Of a stretch of 64,000 nt of DNA, positions 4,156-51,880 are shown piece by piece. Source of the stretch: Planctomycetota bacterium (GTDB lineage: Bacteria > Planctomycetota > JAJSAM01); NCBI GenBank assembly GCA_024274785.1, contig JAJSAM010000026.1:47048-111047 (forward strand). The letters are read 5' to 3'. Positions within the stretch are counted from its first letter, which is position 1. Every line of letters begins with the position of its first letter. The notes beneath the pieces were generated by a model. The model did no database searches. It worked only from the letters and a program-made list of their open reading frames with translations, and had not been told where the DNA came from. Both the position numbers and the translations under genes were made by a program.

Positions 4156-5961
4156 ATGAGCAAGCGTGACACCAGATATGTCTGCCTGAGGATCGCTGGT
4201 GAGGGGGGCGAGGGCGTGATCAGCGCCGGTGAACTGCTCACGCAGGTCGCCGCCCGTCTCGGCATGCACGTGGCGACCTTCAAGACCTTCCCCTCGGAGA
4301 TCCGGGGGGGCATGGCGGTTTACCAGCTTCGCACCGGCCCGGACCGCGTGCTCTCCCAGGGGGACTACCTCGACATCCTGGTCGCCTTCAATCGCGAGGG
4401 CTACGATCGCAACATTGCGGATATGACCTCGGAGGGCGTGCTGGTGCACGACTTCGAACCGGGGGACAACCTTCCGGTGAAGCGGCGTGGCGGCGTGGAC
4501 TACCACGTGCCCATGGGGAAGCTCGCGAGAGAAGCCGGCTCCCACCGCGCGAAGAACATGGTGGCTCTCGGCGCGATCTGTGAGCTCTTCGGTTTTCCGG
4601 TGGAGGGGCTGACCGAAGGAGTTCGCCTGAAGTTCGGGAAGAAGAGCGAGAAGGTCGTCGAGGTCAACCTGAAGGCCATCGATCTCGGTGCGGAATATGT
4701 TCGTGAGAACCACGAGATCCGCCACGAACTGCACTTCAGTGAAGGTGACGGGCATGCGCGGGTCGTGCTCTCCGGGAACGATGCGGTTGCCTTTGGAGCG
4801 GTGGCCGCCGGCTGCCGGTTCTATGCCGGATACCCGATTACCCCGGCCACCGAGATCATGGAATACCTCGCCCGCGAGCTGCCCCGGGTAAGCGGGAGGA
4901 TGGTGCAGGCGGAAGATGAGATCGCCTCGATCGCCATGTGCATCGGAGCTTCCTTTACCGGGCAGAAGTCGATGACCGCCACCTCCGGTCCCGGTCTCGC
5001 CCTGATGAGCGAGGCCCTCGGCCTGGCGTCCATGGCGGAGGTGGGCCTGGTCCTGGTTGACGTGCAGCGCGCCGGTCCCTCCACCGGGATGCCGACCAAG
5101 GCGGAGCAGGGCGATCTGAACCTCGCCATCTACGGCGCCCATTCCACGGCGCACCGGGTGGTCATCGCGCCGGTGGACGTCGAGGACTGCTTCTATCAGA
5201 CGGTGAACGCATTCAACATCGCGGCCAAGTACCAGATTCCGGTGATCGTGTTGTCGGAACAGTCGCTCGGCTTCTCCAAGGCATCGATGCCGCGGCCGGA
5301 CTTTGAAAACCTCGATGTCTTCGAAGAGCAGTACGCCCGCATGCCGACCGATGGGGATCCCTGGCCGAAAGTGGACGAGCTCACGGTGGGTGAAGGCTAT
5401 CCCATGACCCCGGTCTTTCCCCGCTACCTCCGAAACGACACGGGCATTTCCCCGCGTTCGATTCCAGGCATGCCGGGGATGGAGTTTCGGGCGACCGGTC
5501 TGGAACACGACGAGTTCGCCCGGCCCCGCTACGACCCCCCGAACCGAAAGGCCATGCTGAACAAGCGCCAGGCCAAGTTCGAGGAAGTCCGGCGGGAGTA
5601 CGGCGAGCAGGTGGAGGTCATCGGTGATGACGAGGCCGAGGTGGCCATCACCGGGTGGGGTACCACCGCGGCGGTGATCCGGCACGCGGTGACCCGCGCC
5701 CTGAACGATGGCGCTTCGGTCAAGGCCATCTTCCCGAAGATCCTGAGTCCGATGCCGGACATGGCGATGCGCCATCACCTGCACGGTGTCAAGCGCGTGA
5801 TCTGCTGCGAACTGAACGACACCGGTCAGTACGCCAACATCATCCGCCACCGCTACGGCGCCAACGTCCATGCCGTCCTGAAGGACCGCGGCGTTCCGTT
5901 CGCGCCCGGAGAGATCACCCCCTATATCGAGATGGCCATCAAGGCCCAGGTGAGAATATGA
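4156..5961 (+). CDS. korA: 2-oxoacid:ferredoxin oxidoreductase, fused gamma-alpha subunit (KorA-like).
   Basis: A 601-aa protein carrying the conserved alpha-subunit motif AGYPITPATEI and a gamma-like N-terminal domain. The layout matches two-subunit KorAB-type OFORs. An ATGA overlap with the downstream beta subunit indicates translational coupling. Confidence 0.85.
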   Translation: MSKRDTRYVCLRIAGEGGEGVISAGELLTQVAARLGMHVATFKTFPSEIRGGMAVYQLRTGPDRVLSQGDYLDILVAFNREGYDRNIADMTSEGVLVHDFEPGDNLPVKRRGGVDYHVPMGKLAREAGSHRAKNMVALGAICELFGFPVEGLTEGVRLKFGKKSEKVVEVNLKAIDLGAEYVRENHEIRHELHFSEGDGHARVVLSGNDAVAFGAVAAGCRFYAGYPITPATEIMEYLARELPRVSGRMVQAEDEIASIAMCIGASFTGQKSMTATSGPGLALMSEALGLASMAEVGLVLVDVQRAGPSTGMPTKAEQGDLNLAIYGAHSTAHRVVIAPVDVEDCFYQTVNAFNIAAKYQIPVIVLSEQSLGFSKASMPRPDFENLDVFEEQYARMPTDGDPWPKVDELTVGEGYPMTPVFPRYLRNDTGISPRSIPGMPGMEFRATGLEHDEFARPRYDPPNRKAMLNKRQAKFEEVRREYGEQVEVIGDDEAEVAITGWGTTAAVIRHAVTRALNDGASVKAIFPKILSPMPDMAMRHHLHGVKRVICCELNDTGQYANIIRHRYGANVHAVLKDRGVPFAPGEITPYIEMAIKAQVRI

Positions 5962-6893
5962 GCACGTCGGCGGAAGCATCGGCGCCCCGGAACAATGAGC
6001 CCCGGAACAATGAACCCCGGGAGGATGAACCCCGGGAGGCCGGGCCGCCGAAGGAGAGGAAGGGGCACCGCAGCGACCTGAAGCCGGTCTGGTGTCCGGG
6101 ATGTGGTGACTACGGAGTGATCGCCGGTCTGGGCCAGGCGATTGATGTCCTCGGCTACGAGAGCCACCGCATCGTCTTCGTCTCCGGAATCTGCTGTTCC
6201 AGCCGGTTGCCTTACTTCTTCAATACCTACGGCTTCCACACCATCCACGGCCGCGCCGCATCGGTGGCGCTGGGTGTAAAGATGGGGAATCCGGACATGC
6301 GGGTGATTCTGGTGGGGGGAGATGGCGACTTTTTCTCCATCGGCACGAACCACTTCATCCACACCGCGAGGCGAAATCTCGATGTCCTTGCCATCTGCAT
6401 GGACAACAGCATTTACGGATTGACCAAGGGCCAGCTCAGTCCGACTTCCGGCACTGATTTCGTTACCGGCTCGAGCCCCTACGGCTCCGTGGAGCCCCCG
6501 CTCAATTCGCTGGCGCTCGCCATCACCGCTGGAGCGACTTTTGTCGCCCAGTCCTACTCCGCGAACATCAAGCACCTGAAGCAGACCCTGATCGAGGCGG
6601 AACGCCACCCGGGATTCAGCTTCGTGAACGTGATTTCGCCGTGTCTCACGTTCAACAAGGCGAAGTCGTTCGCCTACTACAAGAAGCGGGTCTCCGTAAC
6701 GGAGGAGGAGGCCCGGACGGATCGAGCCGAAGCCCTGTCCATCGTCATGAGTCGTGACGAGCAGTCGGTTCTGGGAACGTTTCTTCAGATTCACCAGCCG
6801 ACCTTCGACGCCGCACAGGCTTCGATGGCGAAAGCCGCCGCCGAGGATCGCGGCGTTCCGTCGATGGAAGAGCTGATCGAGTCGTTCGCGTGA
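5958..6893 (+). CDS. korB: 2-oxoacid:ferredoxin oxidoreductase beta subunit (thiamine-diphosphate binding).
   Basis: The start overlaps the korA stop. The sequence has WCPGCGDYG and GGDGD TPP-binding motifs. The N-terminus contains a short proline/asparagine/glutamate repeat (NNEPRNNEPREDEPRE). Confidence 0.85.
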   Translation: MSTSAEASAPRNNEPRNNEPREDEPREAGPPKERKGHRSDLKPVWCPGCGDYGVIAGLGQAIDVLGYESHRIVFVSGICCSSRLPYFFNTYGFHTIHGRAASVALGVKMGNPDMRVILVGGDGDFFSIGTNHFIHTARRNLDVLAICMDNSIYGLTKGQLSPTSGTDFVTGSSPYGSVEPPLNSLALAITAGATFVAQSYSANIKHLKQTLIEAERHPGFSFVNVISPCLTFNKAKSFAYYKKRVSVTEEEARTDRAEALSIVMSRDEQSVLGTFLQIHQPTFDAAQASMAKAAAEDRGVPSMEELIESFA

Positions 6894-7090
6894 TAGTCCA
6901 GGGGCCGGCACTCCGGACACCTGGATAGCCTTCGATCGCCGAGCCCGGACGCCCTCCCTGACCCTTCCGGCGAGTCGCGCTCCGACGATCGGCGCGCCCT
7001 TCGCGCCGGGCGCACCGTCCCTGTCCCGGAGTTGCATCTCGTACCGTCAGGCCCGCTTGAGGCGCGGCTTCGCCCTCGGCCCGGCTGCGC

Positions 7091-7972
7091 TCAACCGCGC
7101 CGCGCACCCTGGTGGGAAAAGCGGGCCAGGGCGGAGAGTCTGGATTTCCAGGCGTGCGGCTTTGCATCGAGCGCGGCAAGCCGGTTCACGTAGCGCGGAG
7201 CCTCACGCACCTGTTCGAGATAGTCTCCGATCACCGTGCCCTCGATGGCCGACCAGCGCAGCATGAACCGGTCCGCCAGGTCGTTCCGCGAGATGGGCTC
7301 GTTCAGGAATTGCTGGATGCCCCGTGGCCTCGGATCGGCGACCAGGCTGCCCACGAGGTCCAGGCGCAGCCCGACCACTTTCGCGTCTTTCACGCGGGCA
7401 CAGGTGCTCTCCGCCGCGAATTCCACGGCGCCGAGGAAGCGTTTGTAGAACGCCACGTGGCGGGGGTGCACGCCGAGCACCAGGTCCGTCTGGCCGGCGT
7501 AGATGCCGTAGAAGTAGATCCAGCGCATCAGGGAGAACTTCGTCTCCATGCACCGGCTCTTTCCGGTGCGGCCGTCCGCCAGCAGGCCGACCTCCATCAG
7601 GTTCCGGCCGGCTGCGCGGAGTTCGTTCATTTCCGTTGCGAATACATCGTCGAGCGGAAGTCCCTCACCGATGTCGGGATAGCCGCTGATGGTGGCGATG
7701 CCGATGTCCCCGGCGTCGTCCTCGAGCGCTTCGGCCGGGGGCTCCGTCATGACGACGAGCGTGGCCGGGCTCACCGCCTGGGGGACGAGGTGGATGCGGT
7801 GGGGGTTTTCGTCCACGAGGCCGTTTTTCAGGTAGCACTGGTGGACGGTTCGCCAGGCCAGAATGACCTCTTCCAGGCTCTTCGCCGGCCGGTAGGTGGT
7901 ACTGGATGAGTGTGTTCTGCTCTCGGATCTCCTGAGGAGTGGCCGGAGCCGGTTACCCTGCTTGACTGCCAT
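7091..7972 (-). CDS. Putative GNAT-like N-acyltransferase. It resembles FeeM-type N-acyl amino acid synthases and PEP-CTERM/exosortase-associated acyltransferases.
   Basis: An ORF of about 294 aa from ATG at 7972 (MAVKQGNRLRPLL), preceded by a GGGAGG Shine-Dalgarno. Codon bias is good. The family assignment rests only on overall size and layout and on a PEP-CTERM protein elsewhere in the window. It is not based on a hard motif. Confidence 0.4.
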   Translation of the reverse strand: MAVKQGNRLRPLLRRSESRTHSSSTTYRPAKSLEEVILAWRTVHQCYLKNGLVDENPHRIHLVPQAVSPATLVVMTEPPAEALEDDAGDIGIATISGYPDIGEGLPLDDVFATEMNELRAAGRNLMEVGLLADGRTGKSRCMETKFSLMRWIYFYGIYAGQTDLVLGVHPRHVAFYKRFLGAVEFAAESTCARVKDAKVVGLRLDLVGSLVADPRPRGIQQFLNEPISRNDLADRFMLRWSAIEGTVIGDYLEQVREAPRYVNRLAALDAKPHAWKSRLSALARFSHQGARRG

Positions 7973-8254
7973 GGTTGCCCTCCCATTGGCTGTGGTACGG
8001 AACTCTGTCAGTAAAGGTGCGACACCCGATCTGCCCTTCGAGTCGTTCCGGAGTCTGCCCACCACCTCAAAAGGAGCACGGAGAGAGGATTGGGGGATGA
8101 GGTCGCCCTGGAGTGGACAATCGAGGAGGGAACCCACATCGAATTCCGCGGGTGCGGGTGAGACTCGCTGCCGCGGATCGACATCGCAGGGGGGAAGGGC
8201 GCGTCACAACCTGGTGAACGGCCTTCCGTGTCGATCGCGGTCTTGCCTCCTCAG

Positions 8255-8296
8255 GGAACATCGAAGAGCAGGAACATCGAAGCGCAGGAACTCAAG
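8255..8296 (+). promoter_or_regulatory. Tandem 16-bp direct repeats (GGAACATCGAAG-N4, two full copies plus a degenerate third) in the long divergent intergenic region.
   Basis: GGAACATCGAAGAGCA, then GGAACATCGAAGCGCA, then GGAACTCAAG. They lie between the acyltransferase start (7972, minus) and the ThiF-like start (8836, plus). Confidence 0.35.
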
Positions 8297-8835
8297 TGGC
8301 ACATCGCGCCATCCGTGTGCCCCTCGAGGTTCGCCATCGGATGACTATACCCGATCCACCGAGGTGGGGGCCACCAGGCGCCGAAAACCCGCGGCTCCGG
8401 CGATCTTGCGGCGGGTCGGAGATCGGAACAAACCCTGACGGGCACACATTTTCGAGCGGACGCTCGATCGTGATATTCCTGCAAGTCGGGTAGGATTCCC
8501 CCTGGGTACTCCCGTGCTCGGGGTGCCTCTCGCGGTACCAGGCCAGGTTCGGAGGCGCCGTCCGCGGGGGGGCCGGATTCCCCCCGAAGAAGGTCTCAAG
8601 CAGACCGGCCGATATTCCGATAAGCCCATGCTCAGGAACTTGTTCTGTGCGCGTCGGCCTCTCACTTGATCGTCCGATTTCATCTGTGGAGGGGGTCGAA
8701 GATCGCGAGCCGGGCGGCTGGCCGGACCAGTCGGGCCAGGCGATCGACACGACCTTAAGCTTCGTGAAGCTCGATCACCCGGATACACTGCGGACTGCGA
8801 AGCGCTCTCGCCTCACCGAGGCGGGATCCTCGTCC

Positions 8836-9732
8836 ATGGTGGGGGCGACACCGCTGGAATTCGATCGAGACGAGGCATTCTCCCGGAACATCGGCTGGAT
8901 CACCCGGGAGGAGCACCGGACACTTGCCGAAAAAACCGTAGCCATTGCCGGCATGGGTGGTGTGGGCGGAGTGCACCTCACGAACCTGGTCCGCATGGGC
9001 ATCGGTTCCTTCCGCATCGCCGACTTCGATCGCTTTGAACTGGCCAACATGAATCGCCAGGCCGGCGCCTCGATGAGCAACCTCGGTCGAGAGAAGGTCG
9101 AGGTGATGAAAGAGATCGCCCTCGACCTCAACCCCGAACTGGATGTCCGGACTTTCAGCGAAGGCGTGACGCGATCCAATGTCGAGGAGTTTCTCGAAGA
9201 CGTGGATGTTTACGTCGACGGGATCGACTTCTTCGCGCTCGATGCGCGGCGACTTCTGTTCGCCGTCTGTGCGGAGAGGGGCATTCCGGCCGTGACCGCC
9301 GCTCCCCTTGGCATGGGGGCCAGCCTGATGACGTTCCTCCCGGGCAAGATGACGTTTGAACAGTACTTTCGCCTGAAGGGCAAGCCCCGGGTCGAGCAGC
9401 TCATTCGATTCCTGGTGGGCCTCACCCCCGCGCACCTGCATTCCTCCTACCTCGTGGATCCCGATGCGGTCAGTTTCGAAGAGGAGAGGGGGCCGTCGAC
9501 ACCCATGGCGGTGTCCATGTGCGCCGGCATGGCGGTGACGGAAGCCCTGAAGATCATGCTCGGACGCGGCAAGGTCCACGCCGCGCCCCACGGCCTGCAC
9601 TTCGACGCCTACCGGAACAAGTTCGTGCACACCTGGCGACCCGGTGGCAATGCCAACCCGTGGCATCGCCTCATGCTGGCGTTGGCGCTCCGGAAATTCT
9701 CGAGAGACGGCGTCGTCACTCCGGACTCCTGA
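8836..9732 (+). CDS. ThiF/MoeB/HesA-family E1-like adenylyltransferase.
   Basis: Carries the canonical ThiF-family Rossmann motif VAIAGMGGVGGVHLTNLVRMGIGSFRIADFDRFELANMNRQ. The length is about 300 aa. No rhodanese or JAB domain is fused. Confidence 0.75.
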   Translation: MVGATPLEFDRDEAFSRNIGWITREEHRTLAEKTVAIAGMGGVGGVHLTNLVRMGIGSFRIADFDRFELANMNRQAGASMSNLGREKVEVMKEIALDLNPELDVRTFSEGVTRSNVEEFLEDVDVYVDGIDFFALDARRLLFAVCAERGIPAVTAAPLGMGASLMTFLPGKMTFEQYFRLKGKPRVEQLIRFLVGLTPAHLHSSYLVDPDAVSFEEERGPSTPMAVSMCAGMAVTEALKIMLGRGKVHAAPHGLHFDAYRNKFVHTWRPGGNANPWHRLMLALALRKFSRDGVVTPDS

Positions 9733-9832
9733 TCTCCCGAAGATGGCCCGGTGGCCGGGCACGGACCAAAACGAGGATTCCCGGCGTTTTCCGGTAGATT
9801 CCCGCGTCCCCCGGAATCCCTGGAGTTTTCAC

Positions 9833-10195
9833 GTGCTACCGGAAAATCTGAGTCCGCAGGATGCCGTCGACCTCACCGATGATCTCGAGGGCCTGAAGCT
9901 CCTCGATGTCAGGAACCCGAACGAGTGGGAGGTTGCACGCTTGCCCGGGGCCGTCCTGGCCACGCCCGAGCTCATGCGGGAGATCCGGGACGAGTGGGAT
10001 CCGGACACGCCGATCCTCCTCTACTGCCACCACGGGATTCGCAGCATGATCTTTGGGCTGAGACTGCTCATGGCGGGGTTCACCCGGGTCTACAACCTGA
10101 AGGGCGGCATCGAGAAGTGGTCGCTGCTCGTCGATCCATCCGTGCCCCGATACCGGATGGACTCGGGGCTCGCGGTCCTCGTCCGTAACGACTGA
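9833..10195 (+). CDS. Single-domain rhodanese (sulfurtransferase).
   Basis: The active-site loop LLYCHHGIRS (CxxGxR) is followed by GGIEKW. A GTG start at 9833 has a GGAG motif 9 nt upstream. An alternative in-frame ATG lies at 9743. Confidence 0.7.
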   Translation: MLPENLSPQDAVDLTDDLEGLKLLDVRNPNEWEVARLPGAVLATPELMREIRDEWDPDTPILLYCHHGIRSMIFGLRLLMAGFTRVYNLKGGIEKWSLLVDPSVPRYRMDSGLAVLVRND

Positions 10196-10348
10196 GACCC
10201 GATCGAACGGGCATCAAAATCCCTCACCTCCGTGGGGGATATCGCCCGATCCGTGCTCTCGAGCCCTGTTTCTCCGCGATCCGGGGAATGGTACAGGAGT
10301 TGCCTTGGGGTTCTCCTTGAACGCCATTTTGCGTGGAGATTCCCTGTC

Positions 10349-11230
10349 ATGACCGACTTCCTTGGCACAAACTTCCCGATCCTCGAGGCGGAGGTCATCG
10401 GGGAGGATCTCACCTCCTACTGGATCGCGGCGCCCGACATCGTCCATGCCTACGGCCCCGGTCAGTTCGTCATCATCCGGCTCGATGAGGAGGGTGAGCG
10501 CATCCCGCTGACCATCGTCGACGTCGACCGGGAGCGTGGCGCCTTGCAGCTGATCGTCCAGGCGGTGGGGCGTACGACCGCCCAGATGGCGTTGCTGAAG
10601 GCCGGGGACACCATCCTCGACGTGGTGGGGCCGCTCGGCGAGGCCATCCCGATCGAGAAGAAGGACGATGCTTTCGTGATCGTGGGCGGCGGCGTCGGGA
10701 TCGCTCCGATCTATCCCAAGGCCAAGGCGTTGAAGGATGCCGGCAATCGCGTGATCACGATCATCGGCGCGCGGACGAAGGATCTCCTGATGCTGGTCGA
10801 TGCGATGGAGGCTGTCTCGGACGAGTTTCACCTCATGACCGACGACGGCAGCGCCGGGCGCAAGGGGCTTGTGACTGAGCCGCTCGACGAGGTGCTGGGG
10901 CGTGAAGGCACGGTGGCCGAGGTCATCGCGGTGGGGCCACCGATCATGATGAAGTTCTGCACGCTCACCGCCCTCGAGCATGATGCGCCGGTCCTCGTCT
11001 CCCTGAACCCGATCATGATCGATGGGACGGGAATGTGCGGAGGCTGCCGGGTCTCCCTCGGGGACGAGGTGAAGTTCGCTTGTGTCGATGGCCCCTGTTT
11101 CGACGGGGCGAAGATCGACTGGGAAGAGATGATGACCCGTCTCGGCGCCTACAAGGCCGAGGAAAAAGAAGCGATGGACCACTGGTGCCGGATCCGCGAC
11201 GGCGCGGCGGCCGAAGGGAAGAAGGCATGA
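10349..11230 (+). CDS. nfnA: NfnA / SudB-like flavoprotein electron-transfer subunit (FAD plus a C-terminal 2Fe-2S cluster).
   Basis: PyrK-like fold with the C-terminal cysteine cluster GMCGGCRVSLGDEVKFACVDGPCF. An ATGA overlap joins it to the next gene. Confidence 0.8.
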   Translation: MTDFLGTNFPILEAEVIGEDLTSYWIAAPDIVHAYGPGQFVIIRLDEEGERIPLTIVDVDRERGALQLIVQAVGRTTAQMALLKAGDTILDVVGPLGEAIPIEKKDDAFVIVGGGVGIAPIYPKAKALKDAGNRVITIIGARTKDLLMLVDAMEAVSDEFHLMTDDGSAGRKGLVTEPLDEVLGREGTVAEVIAVGPPIMMKFCTLTALEHDAPVLVSLNPIMIDGTGMCGGCRVSLGDEVKFACVDGPCFDGAKIDWEEMMTRLGAYKAEEKEAMDHWCRIRDGAAAEGKKA

Positions 11231-12765
11231 ACGACGACAAGTTGCCCGACTGCTGCGAGAACGCCGACTGCTGCGGCAATGGTGAGAAGAAAAGGCAGAA
11301 GAAAGAAGTCGAGCTGACCCCTTACGGCCGCATCCGTCGGAAGGGCAAGCGGGAGCGCGTCTCGGTTCCCATGCCGGAGCAGGAGCCGCTCGTTCGCGCG
11401 AAGAACTTCGACGAGGTGCCCCTCGGCTACATGGCCGAGATGGCGATGCAGGAGGCGCAGCGTTGCTTCCAGTGCAAGGGTGAACGCGCCAGGTGCGTAC
11501 CCAACTGTCCGGTCGGGATCAACATCCCCAAGTTCCTCGACGAGGTGGCGGAGGGCGACTTCCAGGCGGCGATCATGACCGTGATGGAGGACAACCTCCT
11601 TCCGGCCATCTGCGGCCGGGTCTGCCCGCAGGAAGAGCAGTGCCAGATGGAGTGCATCGGCGGCAAGCGGGGCGAGCCGGCGATGATCGGCCGTCTCGAG
11701 CGCTTCGTGGCCGACTGGTACGCGGTGCACGGTGAGAAGCCCGAGCCGATGACGCCGCCCGAAGGCGCGCAGAAGGTCGCCGTCGTCGGTTCCGGCCCGT
11801 CCGGCCTGACCGCCGCCGCGGACCTCGCGAAGAAGGGGTACGACGTCACCATCTTCGAGGCGTTGCACCGTCCGGGCGGCGTGCTGGTCTACGGTATTCC
11901 GGAGTTCCGGCTGCCGAAACGGATCATCGATCGCGAGGTGGAGAACATCAAGCTCCTCGGCGTGAAGATCTACCTGAACGCCATGATCGGGAAGCTGTTC
12001 ACCGTCGACACCCTGATGAACGAGAAGGGGTTCGAGGCGGTCTACCTCGGCGTGGGAGCGGGCCTGCCCTACATGATGAACGTTGCCGGAAAGAACCTGA
12101 AGGGCGTCTACACCGCGAACGAGTTCCTCTCGCGCGTGAATCTGATGAAGTCCTACGAGTTCCCGAAGTCGCCGACCCCGCTCAAGGTCGGTGAGAACGT
12201 TGCGGTGGTCGGTGGCGGAAACGTGGCCATGGACAGCGTCCGCACCGCGCTCCGCATCGGTGCTGAGAACGTGCACCTCGTCTACCGCCGCTCCGAGGCC
12301 GAGATGCCGGCCCGGAACGAGGAGATCCACCACGCGAAGGAGGAGGGCGTGCAGTTCCACCTCCTGACCAATCCGGTGGAATTGATCGGTGATGACGATG
12401 GCCACGTTCGGGCCGTCAAGTGTGTCAAGATGGAACTCGGCGAGCCCGACGACTCCGGCCGCCGCCGCCCGGTGGTGATCGAGGGCAGCGAGCACGAGCT
12501 CCTGGCGGACAACTTCGTCTTCGCCATCGGCCAGGGCCCGAACCCGATCCTCCCGGCCACCACACCGGGCCTGAAGACGGACAAGTGGGGCTGCTTCCTG
12601 GTGGACGACAGTCAGATGACCTCGATCCCCGGCGTCTTCGCCGGCGGGGACATCACCGGCGGCGCGACGGTCATCACCGCGATGGGTGACGGCCGGACCG
12701 CGGCGAACGGCATCGACCGGTATCTCACCGCCCGGCGGGAGGAGGCGGAGGCAGTGAGGCAGTGA
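11227..12765 (+). CDS. nfnB: NfnB / SudA / GltD-family NAD(P)H-dependent iron-sulfur flavoprotein (two 4Fe-4S clusters, FAD, NADPH).
   Basis: Cysteine clusters CFQCKGERARCVPNCP and CGRVCPQEEQCQMEC. Dinucleotide folds VAVVGSGPSGLTAAADLAKKG and VAVVGGGNVAMD. Confidence 0.85.
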   Translation: MNDDKLPDCCENADCCGNGEKKRQKKEVELTPYGRIRRKGKRERVSVPMPEQEPLVRAKNFDEVPLGYMAEMAMQEAQRCFQCKGERARCVPNCPVGINIPKFLDEVAEGDFQAAIMTVMEDNLLPAICGRVCPQEEQCQMECIGGKRGEPAMIGRLERFVADWYAVHGEKPEPMTPPEGAQKVAVVGSGPSGLTAAADLAKKGYDVTIFEALHRPGGVLVYGIPEFRLPKRIIDREVENIKLLGVKIYLNAMIGKLFTVDTLMNEKGFEAVYLGVGAGLPYMMNVAGKNLKGVYTANEFLSRVNLMKSYEFPKSPTPLKVGENVAVVGGGNVAMDSVRTALRIGAENVHLVYRRSEAEMPARNEEIHHAKEEGVQFHLLTNPVELIGDDDGHVRAVKCVKMELGEPDDSGRRRPVVIEGSEHELLADNFVFAIGQGPNPILPATTPGLKTDKWGCFLVDDSQMTSIPGVFAGGDITGGATVITAMGDGRTAANGIDRYLTARREEAEAVRQ

Positions 12766-13111: not shown

Positions 13112-13360
13112 TCACGCTTCATCCCCGATTTCGTCCTCGGTATTCAGGTAGGCCAGTCCGACGGAGAGGATCGCCGGCAATCGCGAGATCGTCTTCACGA
13201 TGTCGTCCATCGCCTCGGAGGTCTCCGTGTCCATGACCACGACGATGCTGCCTTTCTCGTCGGTGCCATGCACCTCCACCGCCGGGAACGCCGCGATGCC
13301 CTCGAGCGCCGCGGTGAGGTCTTCCGGTGCGCAGGTGATGATGAAGCCGCCGATCGGCAT
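13112..13360 (-). CDS. napD: NapD-like nitrate reductase maturation chaperone.
   Basis: An 82-aa protein immediately downstream of napA. It follows the E. coli NapD pattern (hydrophobic core, VxVxD, ISxLPxxLSVxLxY). Confidence 0.65.
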   Translation of the reverse strand: MPIGGFIITCAPEDLTAALEGIAAFPAVEVHGTDEKGSIVVVMDTETSEAMDDIVKTISRLPAILSVGLAYLNTEDEIGDEA

Positions 13361-13455
13361 GGAATGGCCTCTCGTGGTAGGGAAGAGGGGAGGCGGGGGC
13401 GGGAGAGATCCGCCCCCGGTGGTTCCTGGTCCGCATTTCTCATGAGAAAAGCGGG

Positions 13456-15858
13456 CTAGAGCTGGACGATGACGGGCGAAAGGCGCTTCGGCCCGGAGAC
13501 CCGCCTGATCCGGCAGGCGCAGATCTTGAACTCCGGCTGCTTGGAACCGGGGTCGAACGCATCCACGCAGACCTTGTTCACCATCCGGTCCTCGGCCATG
13601 TCATGCATGTAGGCGAAGATCATGCCCTCCATCGGACCCGACCGGATCCGCGCCGGCATGACGATCTTCCCGCGCCGGGATTCGATCTCCACCATGTCGC
13701 GGTTCCTGATGCCGTAGGCCTTGGCGTCCTTCGGGTTGATCTCGACGAACGAGTAGGGGTTCCCACGGATCAGTTCCGGGATGCGGCCGGTCATCGTGCC
13801 GGTGTGCCAGTGGTCGATGATGCGGCCGGTGGAGAAGTAGATCGGGTAATCGGCGTCCGGCTCCTCCGCCGCACCCTGGAATGGCCGGAGCCACACCCAG
13901 AGTTTCTTGTCCGGGTGAGCCGGTCCGTAGAACTGGTAGGGGAGATCGTTTTCGGAGTGCTCGTCGGCCAGGGGGTCGAAGCCCTTCACGAACTTCATCA
14001 CCGTTCCACCGGTCGCGGCGTGCTCCTTCGTGGGCGCCGGCCACTGCACGCCGTCGTGCATGGTCTTCAGAAGTTCGTAGGTCGCGCCGCGCAGATCGTT
14101 GTCCTGCCCCCTGGTCGCCTTCTGCGAGTACTCGTCCCAGATGGCCTTCGGCAGCGCGTAGTCCGGTTCCTTGCCCTCGAAATCGGCCACGCATTGACGG
14201 ATCATCGGGTCGTTCAGCAGCTTGGCGAGCCGAAGCGCCCACTCCCTGGCGATCCAAACTTCGGGCATCGCTTCACCCGGCGCGTCGATTGCCTTCGGGG
14301 TGAGTTGCGAACGGCGCTCGGTGCAGCCGTAGACCCCCGTCTTCTCGAAGTGGAAGGCCCCGGGCAGGATCAGGTTGGCGCACTCCGTGGTGCGCGTCGG
14401 GAAGATATCGGTGACCACCATGAAGAGGTCGTCGCTCCGCATTCCTTCGCGGTACGGCGTGACGTTCGGGAGGGTCTGCGCGGGGTTCGTGCAGTGGACC
14501 CAGATCGCCTTGATCTTCTTTTCGTTGACCGCCTTGAACATGGCCATGGTGTGCAGGCCGGGCTTCGACGGGAGGCGGCCCCGGGGGAAGCCCCAGATGT
14601 CCTCCATCTGGTTTCGGAGCGGCTCCTTCGCCACGAGACGGTGGCCGGGCAGGATGTGACAGAGTCCACCACCCTCGCGCACGCCGCCGCACGCATTCGG
14701 CTGGCCGGTGAGGGAGAGGCTGTCCGCGCCCTCCTTGCAGAGCTGGCCGGTGATCATGTGGAGGTTGTGGATCAGGTTGTTCGCCCACACGCCCCGGCGC
14801 CGCTGGTTGATGCCCATCGTCCAGCAACTGAGCGTGCCGTTCGACTTCGCGAACCAGCGCGCCGCCTGGCGGATGCTTTTCGCGGTGATGTTCCCGCCGC
14901 AGATCGCCGCCGCCTTCTCCGGCGTGTAGGCCTCGAGGAACTTCCGGTACGAAGAGAGATCGACCTGCTTGCTCTCCTTGCCGATCCGGAACGTGCAGTA
15001 ATTGTTGATGAACTCGTCGTCCTGCAGCCCCTCTTCGAGAATCACCTGGGCCATCGCGTTCAGCATGGCGAGGTCCGTGCCGGGACGGAACTGCATGTGT
15101 GAGTCGGCGATCCGGGAGGTGGCGGACACGCGCGGGTCGGCGTTGATGACCTTCACGAAGTCCGGGTTGTCGAGCTTCCGGCGCATCACCCGGCGGAAGA
15201 ACACCGGGTGGCACTCCGACATATTGCTGCCGATGATGAAGAAGCAGGATGCCTTCTCCACGTTGGCGTAACCGCCGATGGGCTCGTCCGCGCCCATGGA
15301 TGTCACGTATCCTCCGACCGCGCTGGCCATGCAAAGCCGCGGGTTTCCCTCGACGTTGTTCGTCTGAAGGCCGCCGCGCATGATCTTCTGGAAGAGATAG
15401 GTCTCCTCCGTCAGGGCCTGGCCGGACCCGTAGTAGGCCACCGCGTCGTTCCCGTTTGCCTTGATCGCGTCGGCGAACTCCTTCGCCGCGATGTCGAGCG
15501 CCCGATCCCAGGATATCTCCTGGAAGGGCTCACTCTTCTTCGCCCGGTAGAGCGGTCTGGTGAGCCTGTCCGGCTGGTTGCCGATCAGCTTGTGGAAGAG
15601 CATCCCCTTCATGCAGAGGTAGCCCATGCTGGTCCTGGATTTCGGGACGCCGCGGAGCGCGACCGCCTTCCCGTTCTTCACGCCGAGTTCCACGCGGCAC
15701 CCGGTGCCGCAGAGGCGGCAGGTGCCCCTGACCCATTTTTGCGCCTGGCCGGCGGCATGGGCCGTACTCGCGGGAGTCGTGGCCAGGCTCATGCCCACGT
15801 AGGATGCCGCGGTGGCCGCCGCGACCTGCTTCAGGAAGTCACGTCTCGAAACGCCCAT
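13456..15858 (-). CDS. napA: Periplasmic nitrate reductase catalytic subunit NapA (molybdopterin, Tat-exported).
   Basis: The start MGVSRRDFLK carries a Tat motif, with a GAGGAGG Shine-Dalgarno 7 nt upstream. The 4Fe-4S motif is CRLCGTGC. Long blocks match E. coli NapA (NNLIHNLHMITGQ, SLTGQPNACGG, STGRIIDHWHTGTMTGRIPEL). The 880-aa track ORF carries an unsupported upstream extension. Confidence 0.9.
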   Translation of the reverse strand: MGVSRRDFLKQVAAATAASYVGMSLATTPASTAHAAGQAQKWVRGTCRLCGTGCRVELGVKNGKAVALRGVPKSRTSMGYLCMKGMLFHKLIGNQPDRLTRPLYRAKKSEPFQEISWDRALDIAAKEFADAIKANGNDAVAYYGSGQALTEETYLFQKIMRGGLQTNNVEGNPRLCMASAVGGYVTSMGADEPIGGYANVEKASCFFIIGSNMSECHPVFFRRVMRRKLDNPDFVKVINADPRVSATSRIADSHMQFRPGTDLAMLNAMAQVILEEGLQDDEFINNYCTFRIGKESKQVDLSSYRKFLEAYTPEKAAAICGGNITAKSIRQAARWFAKSNGTLSCWTMGINQRRRGVWANNLIHNLHMITGQLCKEGADSLSLTGQPNACGGVREGGGLCHILPGHRLVAKEPLRNQMEDIWGFPRGRLPSKPGLHTMAMFKAVNEKKIKAIWVHCTNPAQTLPNVTPYREGMRSDDLFMVVTDIFPTRTTECANLILPGAFHFEKTGVYGCTERRSQLTPKAIDAPGEAMPEVWIAREWALRLAKLLNDPMIRQCVADFEGKEPDYALPKAIWDEYSQKATRGQDNDLRGATYELLKTMHDGVQWPAPTKEHAATGGTVMKFVKGFDPLADEHSENDLPYQFYGPAHPDKKLWVWLRPFQGAAEEPDADYPIYFSTGRIIDHWHTGTMTGRIPELIRGNPYSFVEINPKDAKAYGIRNRDMVEIESRRGKIVMPARIRSGPMEGMIFAYMHDMAEDRMVNKVCVDAFDPGSKQPEFKICACRIRRVSGPKRLSPVIVQL

Positions 15859-16301
15859 CACTTCGCCTCCTCTCGGTGCCCACGGAAAAGGTGGGGCGCG
15901 TGGCACTCCCAGCACTTTTTCCCCTGCTGCACGCGCGACTTCATCTGCCCCTGGTGGCAGATCGCACAGGTCGTCATCTCCGGGACTTTGCGGAAGTTCT
16001 CGTAGGTGCCGTGGCACTGGAAGCATTTCACGTTGTCGAGCCCGTGCGTGGAGTTGTACCAGTCCTCGTAGATCTGCGGAGTGGCCACCTTGTGGCACGC
16101 CGTGCAGGCGCGGTACACCGCCTCCTCCGGGATCTCCGGGTGGGGTAGAGGCTCGCTGGCGGCGGGAAGCGCCTCCTCCGGCGGGGGAGACGCCTCGGGA
16201 GCGACCGGCTCCGACGGAGAGGCGGATGGTTCGGGCATGGTGCAGGCCAGGATGCCCACGAACAGAATTGTGACCAGGGTCAGCAGGGCGGCGAACTTCA
16301 C
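15858..16301 (-). CDS. Tetraheme c-type cytochrome and probable lipoprotein, the likely electron donor to NapA.
   Basis: Four CxxCH motifs (CTACH, CFQCH, CAICH, CWECH). A GTG start is preceded by GGAAGGGAG. The N-terminal hydrophobic segment ends in ILAC, which resembles a lipobox. The stop overlaps the napA start. Confidence 0.7.
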   Translation of the reverse strand: MKFAALLTLVTILFVGILACTMPEPSASPSEPVAPEASPPPEEALPAASEPLPHPEIPEEAVYRACTACHKVATPQIYEDWYNSTHGLDNVKCFQCHGTYENFRKVPEMTTCAICHQGQMKSRVQQGKKCWECHAPHLFRGHREEAK

Positions 16302-20116: not shown

Positions 20117-20716
20117 TCACCCAACCCGCGTCGCACCGGTGCGGCGGCGGCGGATCAGCACGACGCCGATCGTCAGGCCGACGCCGAAAAGCAGCAGGGT
20201 GGATGGTTCCGGAGTCATGGAGATCAGGACCGCGCCGTCGTCGCCGGCGTTCCCGAACCAGGGCGTCCCGGACCCGGCGCTGTAGATGTAGTTTCCGCCG
20301 GAGTACGGATCGAAGGGGGATCCACCGAACAGACCGCTTCCGGTGGTCACCTGCGCGGTGATCGCGTAGACCGTGCCGGTCGTGATCGCGAGATCGGGAC
20401 TGAAACTGTACGTGCCGGCGATTGTTACTTCCAGGGGTGCGCCGGTGTAGAGCGCGGCTCCGGTGGGGAGTCCACCGGTCGTTTCGTAGACCGCTCCGGC
20501 AAAAAACAGATTGCCATCCGCGGCGACGGAGAGCAGGAATCCAAATTCGGAAAGGACGGGCCCGGCCGCGGTGAACGTCTGGCCGACCCAGTCCGAAGTC
20601 GAGACCCCCACGGCCGCGGTGCCCGGACGCGTATCGATCACGACTCCCGCCTGAGCGGTGGATGCGGCGAAAACCAGAAGCGCGAGAGAAGTCGCTGTGA
20701 CGAAACCGGTTCGCAT
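20117..20716 (-). CDS. PEP-CTERM sorting-domain secreted protein.
   Basis: The start MRTGFVTATSLALLVFAASTAQA is a signal peptide, with an AGGAGG Shine-Dalgarno. The C-terminus PEPSTLLLFGVGLTIGVVLIRRRR is the canonical PEP-CTERM exosortase signal. Confidence 0.8.
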   Translation of the reverse strand: MRTGFVTATSLALLVFAASTAQAGVVIDTRPGTAAVGVSTSDWVGQTFTAAGPVLSEFGFLLSVAADGNLFFAGAVYETTGGLPTGAALYTGAPLEVTIAGTYSFSPDLAITTGTVYAITAQVTTGSGLFGGSPFDPYSGGNYIYSAGSGTPWFGNAGDDGAVLISMTPEPSTLLLFGVGLTIGVVLIRRRRTGATRVG

Positions 20717-20770
20717 GGGGCCTCCTGTTCCGTGTGTGCCTGCTGGTGGAATTCTAGCCCGCATCTCTTG

Positions 20771-20933
20771 GGGCCCGTCTGGAAATAACTGCTGCATTCG
20801 AGGGCCGCTGCATCCCGCTACGCTTTGTTGCTCGTCGGTTGAAACCAGCAAGGTTGCGCCCTCCTCGAGCCTCGTTTCTCGGGCGCCGCGGCGCTCTCGG
20901 TGCAACGGGCGCACAAATTTTCCAGACGAGCCC
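20771..20933 (+). repeat. Intergenic repeat family 1, copy B. Full length with 15-bp terminal inverted repeats GGGCYCGTCTGGAAA.
   Basis: The left end is GGGCCCGTCTGGAAATAA and the right end TTTTCCAGACGAGCCC. The core is shared with copies A, C and D. Confidence 0.8.
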
Positions 20934-20971: not shown

Positions 20972-22897
20972 TCAACGCCCGCGATCCCCGCCCGGACCGT
21001 CCGCCGTATCCGGCCGGTAGCCTCTCGCCCCGGCCATGCGATCGAGTCTCGCGGCGATCGCCCGGTCCCCCGCGAACTCACGCATGCGGGCCAGCTCGAA
21101 CAACCCCCGCGGTGCGGCGGGATGCGTCGCACCGCGTCGGAGTCCCTTTTCCATCTGGTCGATCGCCGCATCGATGTCGTTCCGCCGAAGCTCGATCCGG
21201 ACCAGGATCAGGCGGCACGGCAGCCGGAAGGGGTCCGCGGTCAGTGCTTCGATGAGGGGCGCTCGGGCCTCCTCGTCCCGGCCGAGTTCCGTCAGGACGA
21301 AACCGAGCCCCTCCTTTGCGCCGGCGTGCATGGGCTCTTCCGCGAGGATCGCTCGAAACAGGACCTCCGCGTCTCGCGGGTGTCCGCTCTCGGCGAGGAT
21401 CAGGGCCCGGGCGGCTCGACCTTCGGTGTCCCGGGGATCGAGGCGGCGGACCTCTGCCTCGTAGTGTCTTTCCGCGCGCTGAACACGGAGCATGATCTCC
21501 CGGTCCACGAGCGGGGCGCCCTGCATTGCCGACCGGCATCGCAAGGCGTAACGGCGCTGTTCGTACGGCGTGCCGAGGTTGGTGATGACCAGCGGAACCA
21601 GGCCAAAGAGCGAGAGCGCAACCGCGCCGACGGCGGTCGCGGTGCCCCGGCGCGTCTGGAAGAGGGCGATCCCGCCGATGAGTGTCAGGGGGATACCCAT
21701 CAGGGAGAAGAGGTCCCAGTCAAGGCGGAGCGAGAAGTTCACGTTCCAGAAGTTCGGGAACAGGACGAGGAAGACCGCCGCGACGGCGACGAAGCGGACG
21801 ACCGGGTCGCGTTTTGGGAGGCCGCGGGAAAAGAGGAGCAGGAGGACGCCGGCCGGCGCGGCGAGGATGATGAGGTTCAGCACCCCCACGAAATGCTCGA
21901 GGTCGAGGATCGCGTAACGGCAGAGCACGTTGGTCGCGGTTTTCGTCAGGGGCAGAATCGGTCCGAGATCCATGCCGCCGAGGAAGGAACCGTAGCGATC
22001 CGGACCGGCGACCGGGATCGTGCCGCTCCAACTTGCGAAGAAGAGCCAGGTGTAAACTGCGACGACGGGGACGAGGAAGAAGAGGGCGGCCACGGCCACC
22101 CGTTTCAGCCGGATGGGGGAGAACCGGCCGCCGTTGGCGAGGAGTAGGAGGGACGGCAGCAGGAGTCCGGCGGATCCGTGCAGGCCGAAAGCGATTCCGA
22201 GGACCACGGCGGGAGCGATGACGGATCGATCGTCTCGGAGTGTCCGAATGCCGAGCAGGAAGTACACGGTGAGGGCGGCGGCGAGAGGGGCGTATACCTC
22301 GATGGACCCGAAGAACAACACGGCTGTGCCGCAGGTGATGAGCAGGCCGGCCAGGCCGGCGCGGGCCGCACCGTCCGGGTAGAGCTTCCTTCCGATCCCC
22401 ACCGCGGCGACCACGAAGACCATCCCGGAGAGGACCGAGACGAGGCGCACCGCTTCGGCTGGAAACAGGCTGAACAGCTCGCGGATGCCCGACTGGATGA
22501 AGCAGGTGAGGGGATTGCTGGCATAGGCTTCCCCGGTGGCTGTCCGGAGCATGGTCGCGCTCGCATCGCCCGAGAGCCGGACCGTCGGCAGGAACCAGAA
22601 GAGGCCGCCGCAGCCGAGTACCAGGATGGGCAGTCGGGCGTGGCGGGGAATGAGCCGGGTTACGCGTCCGAAGAGCGACCCGACCCGATCCGCCGCACCC
22701 GGAACCAGGAACAGGACGAGAAGGAGCGCGAAGGAACCCGAGAGCGCGAGGACTCCCGGTGCCCGCCACGCCTCGATGCCGAAGGACGCATCGAAGTCCG
22801 GTCCGCGCGGAGCGGCTGCGCCAATCGCGAAGAGCGCGGTGAGCACCACGGCGGCGATGACGAGGACGATGGCGGGACGTGAGTTCGCGCGCGGCAT
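20972..22897 (-). CDS. Polytopic membrane protein with C-terminal TPR repeats. It resembles GT39/ArnT-like glycosyltransferases or O-antigen-polymerase-like TPR proteins.
   Basis: A 641-aa protein with about 11 hydrophobic helices, followed by a TPR-like helical region (AEVLFRAILAEEP...). Two long plus-strand track ORFs inside it are shadows. Confidence 0.65.
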   Translation of the reverse strand: MPRANSRPAIVLVIAAVVLTALFAIGAAAPRGPDFDASFGIEAWRAPGVLALSGSFALLLVLFLVPGAADRVGSLFGRVTRLIPRHARLPILVLGCGGLFWFLPTVRLSGDASATMLRTATGEAYASNPLTCFIQSGIRELFSLFPAEAVRLVSVLSGMVFVVAAVGIGRKLYPDGAARAGLAGLLITCGTAVLFFGSIEVYAPLAAALTVYFLLGIRTLRDDRSVIAPAVVLGIAFGLHGSAGLLLPSLLLLANGGRFSPIRLKRVAVAALFFLVPVVAVYTWLFFASWSGTIPVAGPDRYGSFLGGMDLGPILPLTKTATNVLCRYAILDLEHFVGVLNLIILAAPAGVLLLLFSRGLPKRDPVVRFVAVAAVFLVLFPNFWNVNFSLRLDWDLFSLMGIPLTLIGGIALFQTRRGTATAVGAVALSLFGLVPLVITNLGTPYEQRRYALRCRSAMQGAPLVDREIMLRVQRAERHYEAEVRRLDPRDTEGRAARALILAESGHPRDAEVLFRAILAEEPMHAGAKEGLGFVLTELGRDEEARAPLIEALTADPFRLPCRLILVRIELRRNDIDAAIDQMEKGLRRGATHPAAPRGLFELARMREFAGDRAIAARLDRMAGARGYRPDTADGPGGDRGR

Positions 22898-27946: not shown

Positions 27947-28456
27947 CTCTTACTCCTGGTCTGGTCATGATTGTCTTCTCCAATACCGCCACCGGGAACT
28001 CCGGTGGGCCCGCTCCGCCGCGGGGCGGGACAGACCACCGCCACGATCGGCTGATCAGGGGTGGTGAGACTGGCGTACAGGCAAGCTGCCGTCACGTCAA
28101 GACGATGCCGTCATTGTCCTCTTCGGAGCAGGCGAACGAAGTTTCTCCGCAGCGCCCGGCCACGCTTCGGAAGATGGCGCCGGCATTGCCTCCCGGCGAT
28201 GGGTCCGGGAGACCTCGCATCTTCGGGTGCGCGGGGTTTCTTCCTTCGTCGGAAGGGGATGACCTTGCTCCCCCCCCCGGGACGGCGCGAGGCCGGAGAG
28301 AAACCCGGAGAGAACATGCGCAAGGCTCTTCGCATTGAGCGATCTCGGCTTACAATGGTGCCGGGTAGGGCGACTCGTGCCAGGGATGGCCTGCCGGCCA
28401 TGCGGATCCGTCGGCATGACCAGATCCGTCCTGGCAAGAGAGTGCGGGGGTCGCTC

Positions 28457-29461: not shown

Positions 29462-29666
29462 CCCGCTTTTCTCACCAGTGCTCGCGCCGCGTTTTCTGGA
29501 CGGCTGAGACCGGAGACGGATGTGTCGCGTCCTGGCGGGTTGCGCCCGGGGCGTGTGTATCTGAGGAGGCAGGCGCGGATGCAGCGCAAGGAAGACCGAC
29601 GACGCGACGCCTTCCCATCTCGGAGGAGGTCTGACGCAGCGGTGCGCCACGACCGTCCCTCAGATC

Positions 29667-30404: not shown

Positions 30405-30872
30405 ATGACCAGTCCTTATCGCCAGGAGCAGATCGAGAGCTGGGTCGACGACTTCTGCGCCTCGAGCCGTTTCCGGGATCACCCGTCTCCCGCCCGGGAG
30501 TATGCGCCGGAGGTCCTGGTCCGGTTCCTGCAAGACGCCTGCAATGCGCGCGATGTCGAGCCGGCCGCACTCGAGGAGCCGGATCTTCGGTCCGGGCTCC
30601 TCGAGGGCGTCGCGAAGATGGCGATACCCGCGCTGGTCCGCGGAGCGATCCCCGCGCTCTGCGGGGCTTTCCTCGCGGAGATGGAGGCACAGGGCCGCAT
30701 CTCCGGCGGTCGCACCATGGGCCTGTTCGTCGCAGCCCTCTCAGACGCCTTCGCGGAAGCCTCGACCCACAAGCCGAAGCCGTTCGTCTCTCCCACCTCG
30801 AAAATCGGGCGAAACGACCCGTGCCCGTGCGGAAGCGGCCGCAAGTACAAGAAGTGCTGTCAGGGCCGCTGA
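30405..30872 (+). CDS. Hypothetical protein with a C-terminal SEC-C zinc-binding motif.
   Basis: The C-terminus [19 protein letters not shown] is a SecA-type SEC-C motif. Confidence 0.6.
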
Positions 30873-51816: not shown

Positions 51817-51819
51817 CCC

Positions 51820-51880
51820 GCAACTCTCACCGGTGCGGACGATTCGAGGGTGGTCGCGGGGCATGTACCGGTGAGGGAAG
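51820..51880 (+). terminator. Possible stem-loop just after nuoN (CTCACCGGT ... ACCGGTGAG).
   Basis: A 9-bp perfect inverted repeat separated by about 33 nt. No U-tract follows, so it is not a canonical intrinsic terminator. Confidence 0.2.

Follow-up and report, generated by a model that had tools for sequence, protein, structure and literature searches.

The locus analysed here is likely to encode a two-gene N-acyl amino acid/oxazolone pathway, composed of a FeeM-like synthase and a divergently transcribed ThiF-like cyclase, in which the neighbouring rhodanese is not a partner. The pair is a variant of the known acyl-oxazolone system whose usual linked flavin oxidase (FDO) is missing. The window, which is the whole stretch of DNA analysed, represents 64 kb of a 254-kb contig, and the features of interest are listed in Table 1. 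The coordinates and the gene identities of the original prediction (acyltransferase, ThiF, rhodanese and NfnAB-like genes) were all confirmed. The window also carries genes of the anaerobe type, including a 2-oxoacid:ferredoxin oxidoreductase, NapA/NapD and a B12-radical SAM enzyme in addition to NfnAB, and the host, placed in Planctomycetota by its NuoD hits, is likely an anaerobic or microaerobic planctomycete.

Table 1. Features of the locus, in positions of the window
Feature	Position	Strand	Size	Description
FeeM-like N-acyl amino acid synthase	7091-7972	-	293 aa from ATG	Candidate N-acyltransferase of the OxzA/TyzA type
Divergent spacer	7973-8835		863 bp	Non-coding; presumably contains both promoters
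Direct repeat	8255-8291		16 nt, 2.3 copies	Inside the spacer
ThiF-family ATP-dependent adenylating enzyme	8836-9732	+	298 aa	Stand-alone; predicted member of the OxzB/TyzB/TrzS cyclase cluster
Single-domain rhodanese	9833-10195	+		PF00581; loop CHHGIR
NfnA-like gene	10349-11230			Downstream of the rhodanese
NfnB-like gene	11227-12765			Downstream of the rhodanese

In the pathway we propose, the synthase would, as its family suggests, move a fatty acyl chain from acyl-CoA or acyl-ACP onto the amino group of an amino acid to generate an N-acyl amino acid; in the characterised N-acyl amino acid systems, the acceptor is an aromatic amino acid. The ThiF-like enzyme, by homology with OxzB, TyzB and TrzS, would then use ATP to adenylate the free alpha-carboxylate, and the attack of the amide oxygen on the acyl-adenylate would close a 2-alkyl-5(4H)-oxazolone (azlactone) ring with the release of AMP. 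Neither a ubiquitin-like carrier nor sulfur would be involved in this step. In the known systems, an FDO of the nitroreductase superfamily desaturates the side chain, which results in a stable unsaturated oxazolone or in an N-acyl dehydro-amino acid. In the present case, either an unlinked FDO would finish the pathway or the clade would end at the saturated oxazolone.

The assignment of the acyltransferase relies on its match to the Pfam FeeM model PF21926, which is covered over its full 158 positions with a score of 98 bits (cutoff 27, 6e-28). In the 989-aa fusion model PRK14852 the protein matches the N-terminal part (positions 34-200), and FeeM (2g0b, E = 2e-4) is its sole significant match in a search of PDB sequences. 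The original prediction had directed attention to the PEP-CTERM/exosortase-associated family TIGR03694, a proposal that we abandon in favour of FeeM: this model (cutoff 111.95 bits) gives no match to the window acyltransferase at E <= 0.01. Another class of acyltransferase, encoded upstream of many proteobacterial ThiF genes, matches it at 217 bits. Homologues of the FeeM-like protein are encoded near the ThiF gene in the relatives L084 (83% identity) and L083 (42%), and a homologue search returned three proteins only, because the family diverges quickly.

The ThiF-family enzyme scores 161.6 bits against Pfam PF00899 and 423.6 bits against NCBIfam PRK08223 (cutoff 266), a value on a par with the 427 bits that the ThiF part of a ThiF-FDO fusion from Nitrosospira obtains. 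It matches the ThiF parts of PRK14851 and PRK14852 at 300 and 261 bits, respectively, and is matched by the Rv1355c (TrzS) family model at 1.8e-21; all three PRK models still bear the NCBIfam name "hypothetical protein". Its identity to ThiF domains fused with or adjoining a nitroreductase-type FDO is 56-66%. On these sequence grounds the enzyme is placed in the OxzB/TyzB/TrzS cyclase cluster, the link to the characterised enzymes being made through NCBIfam models and domain architecture. The adenylation site is intact, with AGMGGVGG, N73-R74-Q75, D128 and D131 invariant in an alignment of 22 sequences and D128 aligned with D127 of E. coli ThiF. Across the wider family, 103 positions show a conservation of at least 95%; the window's clade retains 96 of them, and it differs at two otherwise nearly invariant positions, where Y11 is replaced by R and C226 by V or A; these changes may reflect an altered chemistry. 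The AlphaFold2 model (pLDDT 85) adopts the ThiF/MoeB fold, and Foldseek and PDB sequence searches return generic ThiF/MoeB/PaaA/MccB/TcdA matches only, the best PDB sequence being TcdA (1.6e-14). The start of the gene lies near 8836: a 361-aa database call beginning at 8647, which would add an N-terminal extension, was rejected as over-extended because relatives show in-frame stops 19-26 codons upstream.

The association of the two genes extends well beyond this genome. The ThiF family comprises 417 representatives at 50% identity scoring below 1e-30, and the best 150 of these cluster representatives include 81 of ThiF+FDO size. Among 86 loci whose ThiF domains are 56-88% identical to that of the window, an N-acyltransferase is found within 6 kb of ThiF in 61, and an FDO is linked to ThiF in 62 (fused in 28, nearby in 34). 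Natural fusions join the same activities in FeeM-ThiF-nitroreductase (P0380), methyltransferase-ThiF-FeeM (P0313), GNAT-ThiF (P0256) and ThiF-nitroreductase (P0245, 60% identical to the window ThiF) proteins, and several of the fusion architectures of the family, including oxidase-free architectures with a methyltransferase, are undescribed in published work. The idea that the three genes form one module is therefore supported for the acyltransferase and ThiF, which are linked in these 61 loci and in fusions of the PRK14852 type, and unsupported for the rhodanese, which accompanies ThiF in a single locus.

ThiF-type small-molecule cyclases have been recognised only in 2020-2025. In Pseudoalteromonas rubra and other Proteobacteria, OxzA/OxzB are responsible for the ATP-dependent synthesis of tyrazolones (de Rond et al., bioRxiv 10.1101/2020.06.11.147165). 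There too the N-acyltransferase gene adjoins a ThiF-type domain, and the window ThiF is 56-66% identical to proteobacterial domains so arranged; however, OxzB is a ThiF-nitroreductase di-domain protein whereas the window ThiF is stand-alone, the OxzA/OxzB genes are co-directional whereas those of the window are divergent, and the window acyltransferase is of the FeeM type, unlike the TIGR03694-type acyltransferases whose genes precede many of the proteobacterial fusions. In M. tuberculosis, TyzA/TyzB/TyzC are Rv2336/Rv2338c/Rv2337c and TrzA/TrzS are Rv1356c/Rv1355c (PMC10404671, PMC12856293). The ThiF homologue TyzB cyclises N-acyl-Tyr (PMC10404671); like the window ThiF, it is stand-alone (~318 aa) and encoded divergently from the acyltransferase. 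Cyclisation is the first step of TrzS; its saturated, cyclised intermediate builds up in the absence of O2 or with the FDO variant R540A, and the D217A substitution abolishes cyclisation (PMC12856293). The window ThiF has in common with TyzB and TrzS the conserved adenylation Asp and, as a prediction, the use of ATP to cyclise an N-acyl amino acid, but the FDO partner of TyzB is encoded by tyzC in the same operon as tyzB, and TrzS contains its FDO as a fused domain. The stieleriacine/N-acyl dehydrotyrosine clusters of the planctomycete genus Stieleria combine N-acyl amino acid synthase(s), a ThiF-family protein and a nitroreductase (PMC12479983); they resemble the window pair in their phylum and in the first two components, and differ in carrying the nitroreductase and a methyltransferase, neither of which is near the window pair. 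TcdA, the tRNA ct6A dehydratase, performs a carrier-free cyclodehydration of an N-acylated amino acid moiety that resembles the proposed reaction, and it shares with ThiF/MoeB and the window ThiF a Rossmann-type adenylation core; unlike these enzymes, the window ThiF has no 4-Cys zinc site, carrier protein or tRNA context, and it can be aligned to ThiF/TcdA only in its N-terminal half (residues ~23-169). The Planctomycetota host and the position of TcdA, a carrier-independent cyclodehydratase, as nearest solved relative were both counted in favour of an oxazolone pathway.

The FDO is the component that would be expected from these systems and that is missing. A tblastn search for it against the entire 64-kb window gave a best E of 6.5, and Pfam and NCBIfam scans of about 45 window ORFs revealed no Nitroreductase/Acg-family match. 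It is also absent from the examined flanks of all six members of the window's Planctomycetota ThiF clade; in L083 these flanks extend 8 kb to either side, and in the window they amount to 8.8 kb upstream and 54 kb downstream. The pathway may yield a saturated oxazolone; alternatively, the gene for the oxidase may lie at another site. The absence from the 64 kb was counted against the oxazolone pathway, together with the replacement of Y11 and C226 and with a close relative (L086) whose ThiF has no adjoining synthase. Three unannotated genes located between ThiF and FeeM in L083 were considered as an additional clade partner replacing the FDO and were discarded, having no homologues in the window or in the other loci.

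That the pathway ends in this clade with the saturated N-acyl 5(4H)-oxazolone, the azlactone being either the end product or an activated N-acyl-aminoacyl donor, is possible, though we consider it rather unlikely. It would agree with the absence of the FDO from all six members and with their specific changes at Y11 and C226, with the existence of FDO-less fusions (methyltransferase-ThiF-FeeM and GNAT-ThiF), and with the requirement of FDO desaturation for O2 while the window holds anaerobe-type genes; moreover, the ThiF step of TrzS alone gives a saturated cyclised product (PMC12856293). On the other hand, an unlinked FDO is possible, since it lies several genes away in Stieleria maiorica (PMC12479983), the examined 64 kb are a part of the contig, short contigs account for four of the six loci of the clade, and any biological function of a saturated azlactone is speculative because such azlactones hydrolyse readily. 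Doubtful in a higher degree is the more specific proposal that the oxidase-free pathway delivers the saturated azlactone as an activated N-acyl-aminoacyl donor which, here, the rhodanese persulfide might intercept to form an N-acyl amino thioacid; the part assigned to the rhodanese carries a marginal probability at most. If true, the reaction of the azlactone with the persulfide would amount to the ThiF-dependent formation of a thiocarboxylate with no carrier protein. A coherent clade without the O2-dependent oxidase could in any case reveal what the ThiF step does alone.

It is improbable that ThiF acts on another substrate, such as the C-terminus of a peptide or protein in the manner of MccB or PaaA, and that its adjacency to the FeeM-like gene is an inherited synteny without function. 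The locus of L086 could be read in this sense, as could the divergent arrangement of the pair, separated by 863 bp and forming no operon, and the fold matches of the ThiF model to PaaA and MccB, which equal those to ThiF in quality. However, the 298-aa enzyme consists of the core fold only and is devoid of the N-terminal peptide-clamp extension of MccB/PaaA, its relatives are strongly linked and fused to N-acyltransferases across the family, and no conserved small ORF resembling a precursor peptide was found in the 86 loci.

The two-gene pathway leaves the rhodanese outside the module, where local synteny indicates that it is probably an unconserved neighbour between ThiF and the NfnAB-like genes. 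It scores 66 bits against PF00581 and below every NCBIfam cutoff, and it shows similarity (1e-11 to 1e-13) to the rhodanese domains found in MoeZ/MoeB fusions. Its loop is intact, and it follows ThiF on the same strand after 100 nt with no terminator predicted between them; the two genes could be co-transcribed in this genome. [quoted passage not shown] The original prediction, according to which the E1-like ThiF and the rhodanese would thiocarboxylate a ubiquitin-like carrier of the ThiS, MoaD, CysO or QbsE type encoded elsewhere, is very improbable and is largely refuted by synteny: a rhodanese ORF occurs near ThiF in one of the 86 loci, which is the window itself, and in none of 80 distant loci. 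The co-localisation of the three genes in relatives, set beforehand as a test, fails for the rhodanese, since in the close relative L085 ThiF runs to NfnA with no rhodanese between, and in L088 the rhodanese is displaced to 1.9 kb from ThiF, with two opposite-strand genes between. Within 4 kb of ThiF, the 86 loci contain 14 GG-ended ORFs of 50-130 aa, no two of which are alike, and no conserved GG-ended small ORF. The ThiF scores are also far below the equivalog cutoffs of TIGR02356 (97.9 against 275 bits), PRK08762 MoeB (86.9 against 449) and MoeZ (58.7 against 647), and its only two cysteines, C145 and C229, form no CxxC pair, whereas E. coli ThiF and MoeB build a four-cysteine zinc site from two such pairs.

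The spacer was correctly described as an unusually long intergenic region of poor coding potential: its codon-phase GC signal is absent, with max-min values of 0.05-0.20 as against 0.33-0.50 in the flanking genes. In agreement with the earlier remark that no small GG-terminated carrier ORF was evident, the sole such ORF of the region is a TTG-started one of 41 aa (7975-8100), one of five in the window; it is unconserved, and a hidden small gene in the spacer was rejected on this basis and on that of the codon-phase GC. The two regulatory roles suggested for the spacer found no counterpart in the data. As regards a structured leader or riboswitch, an Rfam scan of positions 6500-10500 at E <= 1 gave as its sole match a sub-threshold IMPDH-RNA inside the ThiF gene (21 bits; gathering cutoff 95), and the leader folds are no more stable than those of shuffled sequences (z = +0.43 and -0.92). 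As regards an array of regulator binding sites, the 12-mer of the repeat occurs twice in the window, two matches were also obtained in 12 of 100 shuffles, and L084, the relative at 88% identity, has no such repeat; the repeat is thus a weak feature. A scan for sigma-70 promoters detected no site in the spacer. Its conservation with L084 is restricted to the last ~135 nt (8703-8835), which precede the ThiF gene and are 72% identical.

The acyltransferase-ThiF module of this locus is real and the ThiF-rhodanese sulfur pair is not: judged from its sequence, the locus is a variant of the known acyl-oxazolone / N-acyl amino acid pathway that lacks a linked oxidase. ORF and profile searches bear out the gene set of the original prediction, including the NfnAB-like genes downstream. 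Family membership of both proteins, their conserved linkage and fusion, and the intact adenylation residues of ThiF are established by sequence comparison: D128 aligns with D127 of ThiF, and the glycine loop and NRQ motif are invariant. The AF2 model (pLDDT 85) has a generic ThiF/MoeB fold.

Features of the locus and of the rest of the window
Feature	Position	Strand	Evidence or remark
2-oxoacid:ferredoxin oxidoreductase pair			upstream of the FeeM-like/ThiF region
FeeM-like acyltransferase	7091-7972	-	Pfam PF21926, 98 bits
FeeM-ThiF spacer	7973-8835		863 bp
GG-terminated ORF	7975-8100		41 aa, TTG start
Tandem repeat	8255-8291		2.3 copies of a 16-bp unit
Conserved spacer segment	8703-8835		last ~135 nt
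ThiF-family protein	8836-9732	+	PF00899, 161.6 bits; NCBIfam PRK08223, 423.6 bits (cutoff 266)
Single-domain rhodanese	9833-10195	+	PF00581, 66 bits; loop CHHGIR
NfnA-like and NfnB-like genes	10349-12765		downstream of rhodanese; profile match
NapD and NapA-like molybdopterin oxidoreductase	13112-16098	-	
PEP-CTERM-motif protein	20117-20914	-	
PMT_2/TPR glycosyltransferase-like membrane protein	20972-22897	-	
Two neighbouring FHA-domain proteins	28061-30374	+	one with double zinc ribbons
Small SEC-C-motif protein	30405-30872		after the FHA-domain pair
347-aa ORF	34145-35188	+	N-terminal part matches REP-associated tyrosine transposase model, 8e-11, sub-cutoff
B12-binding radical SAM enzyme	36034-37683	-	
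Complex I (nuo) operon	37998 to about 51900	+	
High-GC1 ORFs	50665-51864	-	odd composition

Two NCBIfam models bear on ThiF and its partner: in PRK14852, a 989-aa "hypothetical protein" model, positions 34-200 match the FeeM-like protein and 312-588 match ThiF, and the N-terminal 295 positions of PRK14851 (679 aa) match ThiF, so that natural FeeM-ThiF fusions exist. A scan of species-representative genomes yielded 80 loci, mostly from Gamma- and Betaproteobacteria with one Planctomycetota MAG, whose ThiF domains are 56-66% identical to that of the window; the ORFs neighbouring ThiF were clustered, and HMMs built from the clusters were run on 86 loci. An N-acyltransferase of the FeeM-like or the TIGR03694 class lies within 6 kb of ThiF in 61 of the 86. 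A protein of some 350 aa bearing the nitroreductase signature APSGDNTQPWRF is fused to ThiF or encoded after it, and NCBIfam places this protein both with the Acg-family FMN oxidoreductases and with the C-terminal region of the Rv1355c family; this flavin oxidase (FDO) is present in 62 of the 86 loci (fused in 28, separate in 34). Searched exhaustively, 1.84 billion representatives yielded 417 ThiF relatives below 1e-30, and among the best 150 of these, 81 have the size of a ThiF+FDO protein and 36 are stand-alone. Pfam scans of selected cluster representatives reveal the orders ThiF-nitroreductase (P0245, 60% identical to the window ThiF), nitroreductase-ThiF (P0264) and FeeM-ThiF-nitroreductase (P0380) and, without a nitroreductase domain, methyltransferase-ThiF-FeeM (P0313, 949 aa), methyltransferase-ThiF (P0278, 517 aa) and GNAT-ThiF (P0256, 515 aa). 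We found no description of the last three in the oxazolone literature. In Thioalkalivibrio denitrificans (L081), a methyltransferase follows ThiF and no FDO was found within 8 kb.

The N-acyltransferase, ThiF and FDO architecture of the related loci is that of the published acyl-oxazolone pathway. [quoted passage not shown] In M. tuberculosis, Tyr/Phe are N-acylated by TyzA, cyclisation falls to the stand-alone ThiF homologue TyzB and desaturation to the FDO TyzC (PMC10404671). With TrzS (Rv1355c) cyclisation comes first: the saturated cyclised intermediate builds up when O2 is lacking or the FDO carries R540A, and cyclisation is lost with D217A (PMC12856293). Besides N-acyl amino acid synthases, the stieleriacine clusters of Planctomycetota encode a ThiF protein, a methyltransferase and a nitroreductase (PMC12479983). 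By analogy with the characterised homologues, the FeeM-like synthase of the window would make an N-acyl amino acid whose carboxylate would be adenylated by ThiF, and the amide oxygen would then close the 5(4H)-oxazolone ring; as the last step, either an unlinked FDO would desaturate the product or the clade would end at the saturated azlactone.

The original prediction had made ThiF and the rhodanese a sulfur-transfer pair for a ubiquitin-like carrier, and had joined the acyltransferase to them as a possible three-gene module. Linkage and fusions uphold the acyltransferase-ThiF pair, but the rhodanese drops out. Against the sulfur pair stand an unconserved rhodanese, the lack of a conserved GG-terminated ORF near the ThiF family, scores of the window ThiF far under the ThiF, MoeB and MoeZ cutoffs, and its cysteine content. 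A tblastn search detected no rhodanese in the 80 distant loci, and the sole match near ThiF among the ORFs of the 86 loci is the window's own. Even among the close relatives, whose ThiF is 72-88% identical, ThiF of L085 is followed after 198 nt by NfnA with no rhodanese between, in L088 two opposite-strand genes, for a thioredoxin-like protein and an ECF sigma factor, separate ThiF from a 72%-identical rhodanese, and L086 has the same insertion and no detectable rhodanese. The rhodanese, displaced or not found in these three, is thus a variable neighbour within the ThiF-to-NfnAB interval. The insertion lies directly 3' of ThiF (1589-3330 in L088, 3146-4873 in L086), where the window has the rhodanese, and its thioredoxin-like protein is of about 395 aa. 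E. coli ThiF and MoeB carry a four-cysteine zinc site, which is impossible in the window ThiF because it has two cysteines only. Its alignment to solved ThiF-family proteins covers the N-terminal half, and the best solved match is TcdA, a carrier-independent cyclodehydratase.

The 64 kb of the window yielded no FDO. Neighbour-joining of the ThiF domains groups the window with L083, L084, L085, L086 and L088, and none of the six has an FDO in its available flanks; this clade is nested within a family that usually has the FDO fused to ThiF or next to it. Of 103 positions with at least 95% conservation in the rest of the family, the clade retains 96. Among its substitutions are Y11 to R (V in L083) and C226 to V/A, at about 8866-8868 and 9511-9513 of the window, both residues being at least 95% conserved over the 80 other ThiF domains; these changes may reflect a lost contact with the oxidase or an altered substrate. 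Flanks are informative for five of the clade loci, L088 having too short an upstream sequence; in four of the five (the window, L083, L084 and L085, not L086) a FeeM-like gene lies within 2 kb of ThiF. Oxidase-free fusions such as methyltransferase-ThiF-FeeM indicate that versions without FDO recur. The ferredoxin oxidoreductase, NfnAB-like, NapA/NapD and B12-radical SAM genes of the window suggest a low-oxygen metabolism, in which an FDO that depends on O2 would presumably serve little purpose. The copy number of the synthase differs among close relatives: the window has one, L084 carries two FeeM-like paralogues in tandem (5202-7200), with 83% and 49% identity to the one in the window, and in L086 the stretch from the ferredoxin-oxidoreductase beta subunit to ThiF (1272-1646) holds no synthase gene.

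The predicted start of ThiF is near 8836, where L084 shares the ATG of the window. In-frame stops lie 19-26 codons 5' of the conserved N-terminus in relatives, so that the database call P0001 (361 aa, GTG at 8647) is over-extended, by about 63 codons (8647-8835). The spacer is poorly coding, as had been proposed: it lacks the codon-phase GC signal present in the flanking genes. The region has a single small GG-terminated ORF, out of five such ORFs across the window. The 16-bp tandem repeat exists but is not found in the 88%-identical relative; its 12-mer occurs twice in the whole window, a count equalled in 12 of 100 shuffles. The suggested riboswitch or structured leader fails, an Rfam scan of the region giving nothing meaningful and the leader folding no better than shuffles. 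Conservation of the spacer is limited to its last segment (72% against L084, partial against L088), which probably represents the promoter or 5' UTR of ThiF; a scan for sigma-70-like sites gave none there.

In Proteobacteria (L081, L083 and many of the 80 distant loci), the acyltransferase-ThiF(-FDO) genes lie within PEP-CTERM/exosortase-type exopolysaccharide loci with TIGR03694 acyltransferases, a TPR protein of about 930 aa, a sigma-54 response regulator, Wzz, PEP-CTERM proteins, MMPL, and ABC permease and ATPase genes. Exosortase is not mentioned in the oxazolone papers searched. The PEP-CTERM-motif protein of the window, encoded beside the glycosyltransferase-like membrane protein some 10 kb away from ThiF, implies that the organism has exosortase-type substrates; the window yielded no exosortase gene. 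Elsewhere in the window, the 347-aa ORF may be a RAYT that has diverged or been domesticated, and the high-GC1 ORFs resemble antisense artefacts, probably arising from the final nuo gene. The window is from Planctomycetota, the phylum of all named relatives of NuoD.
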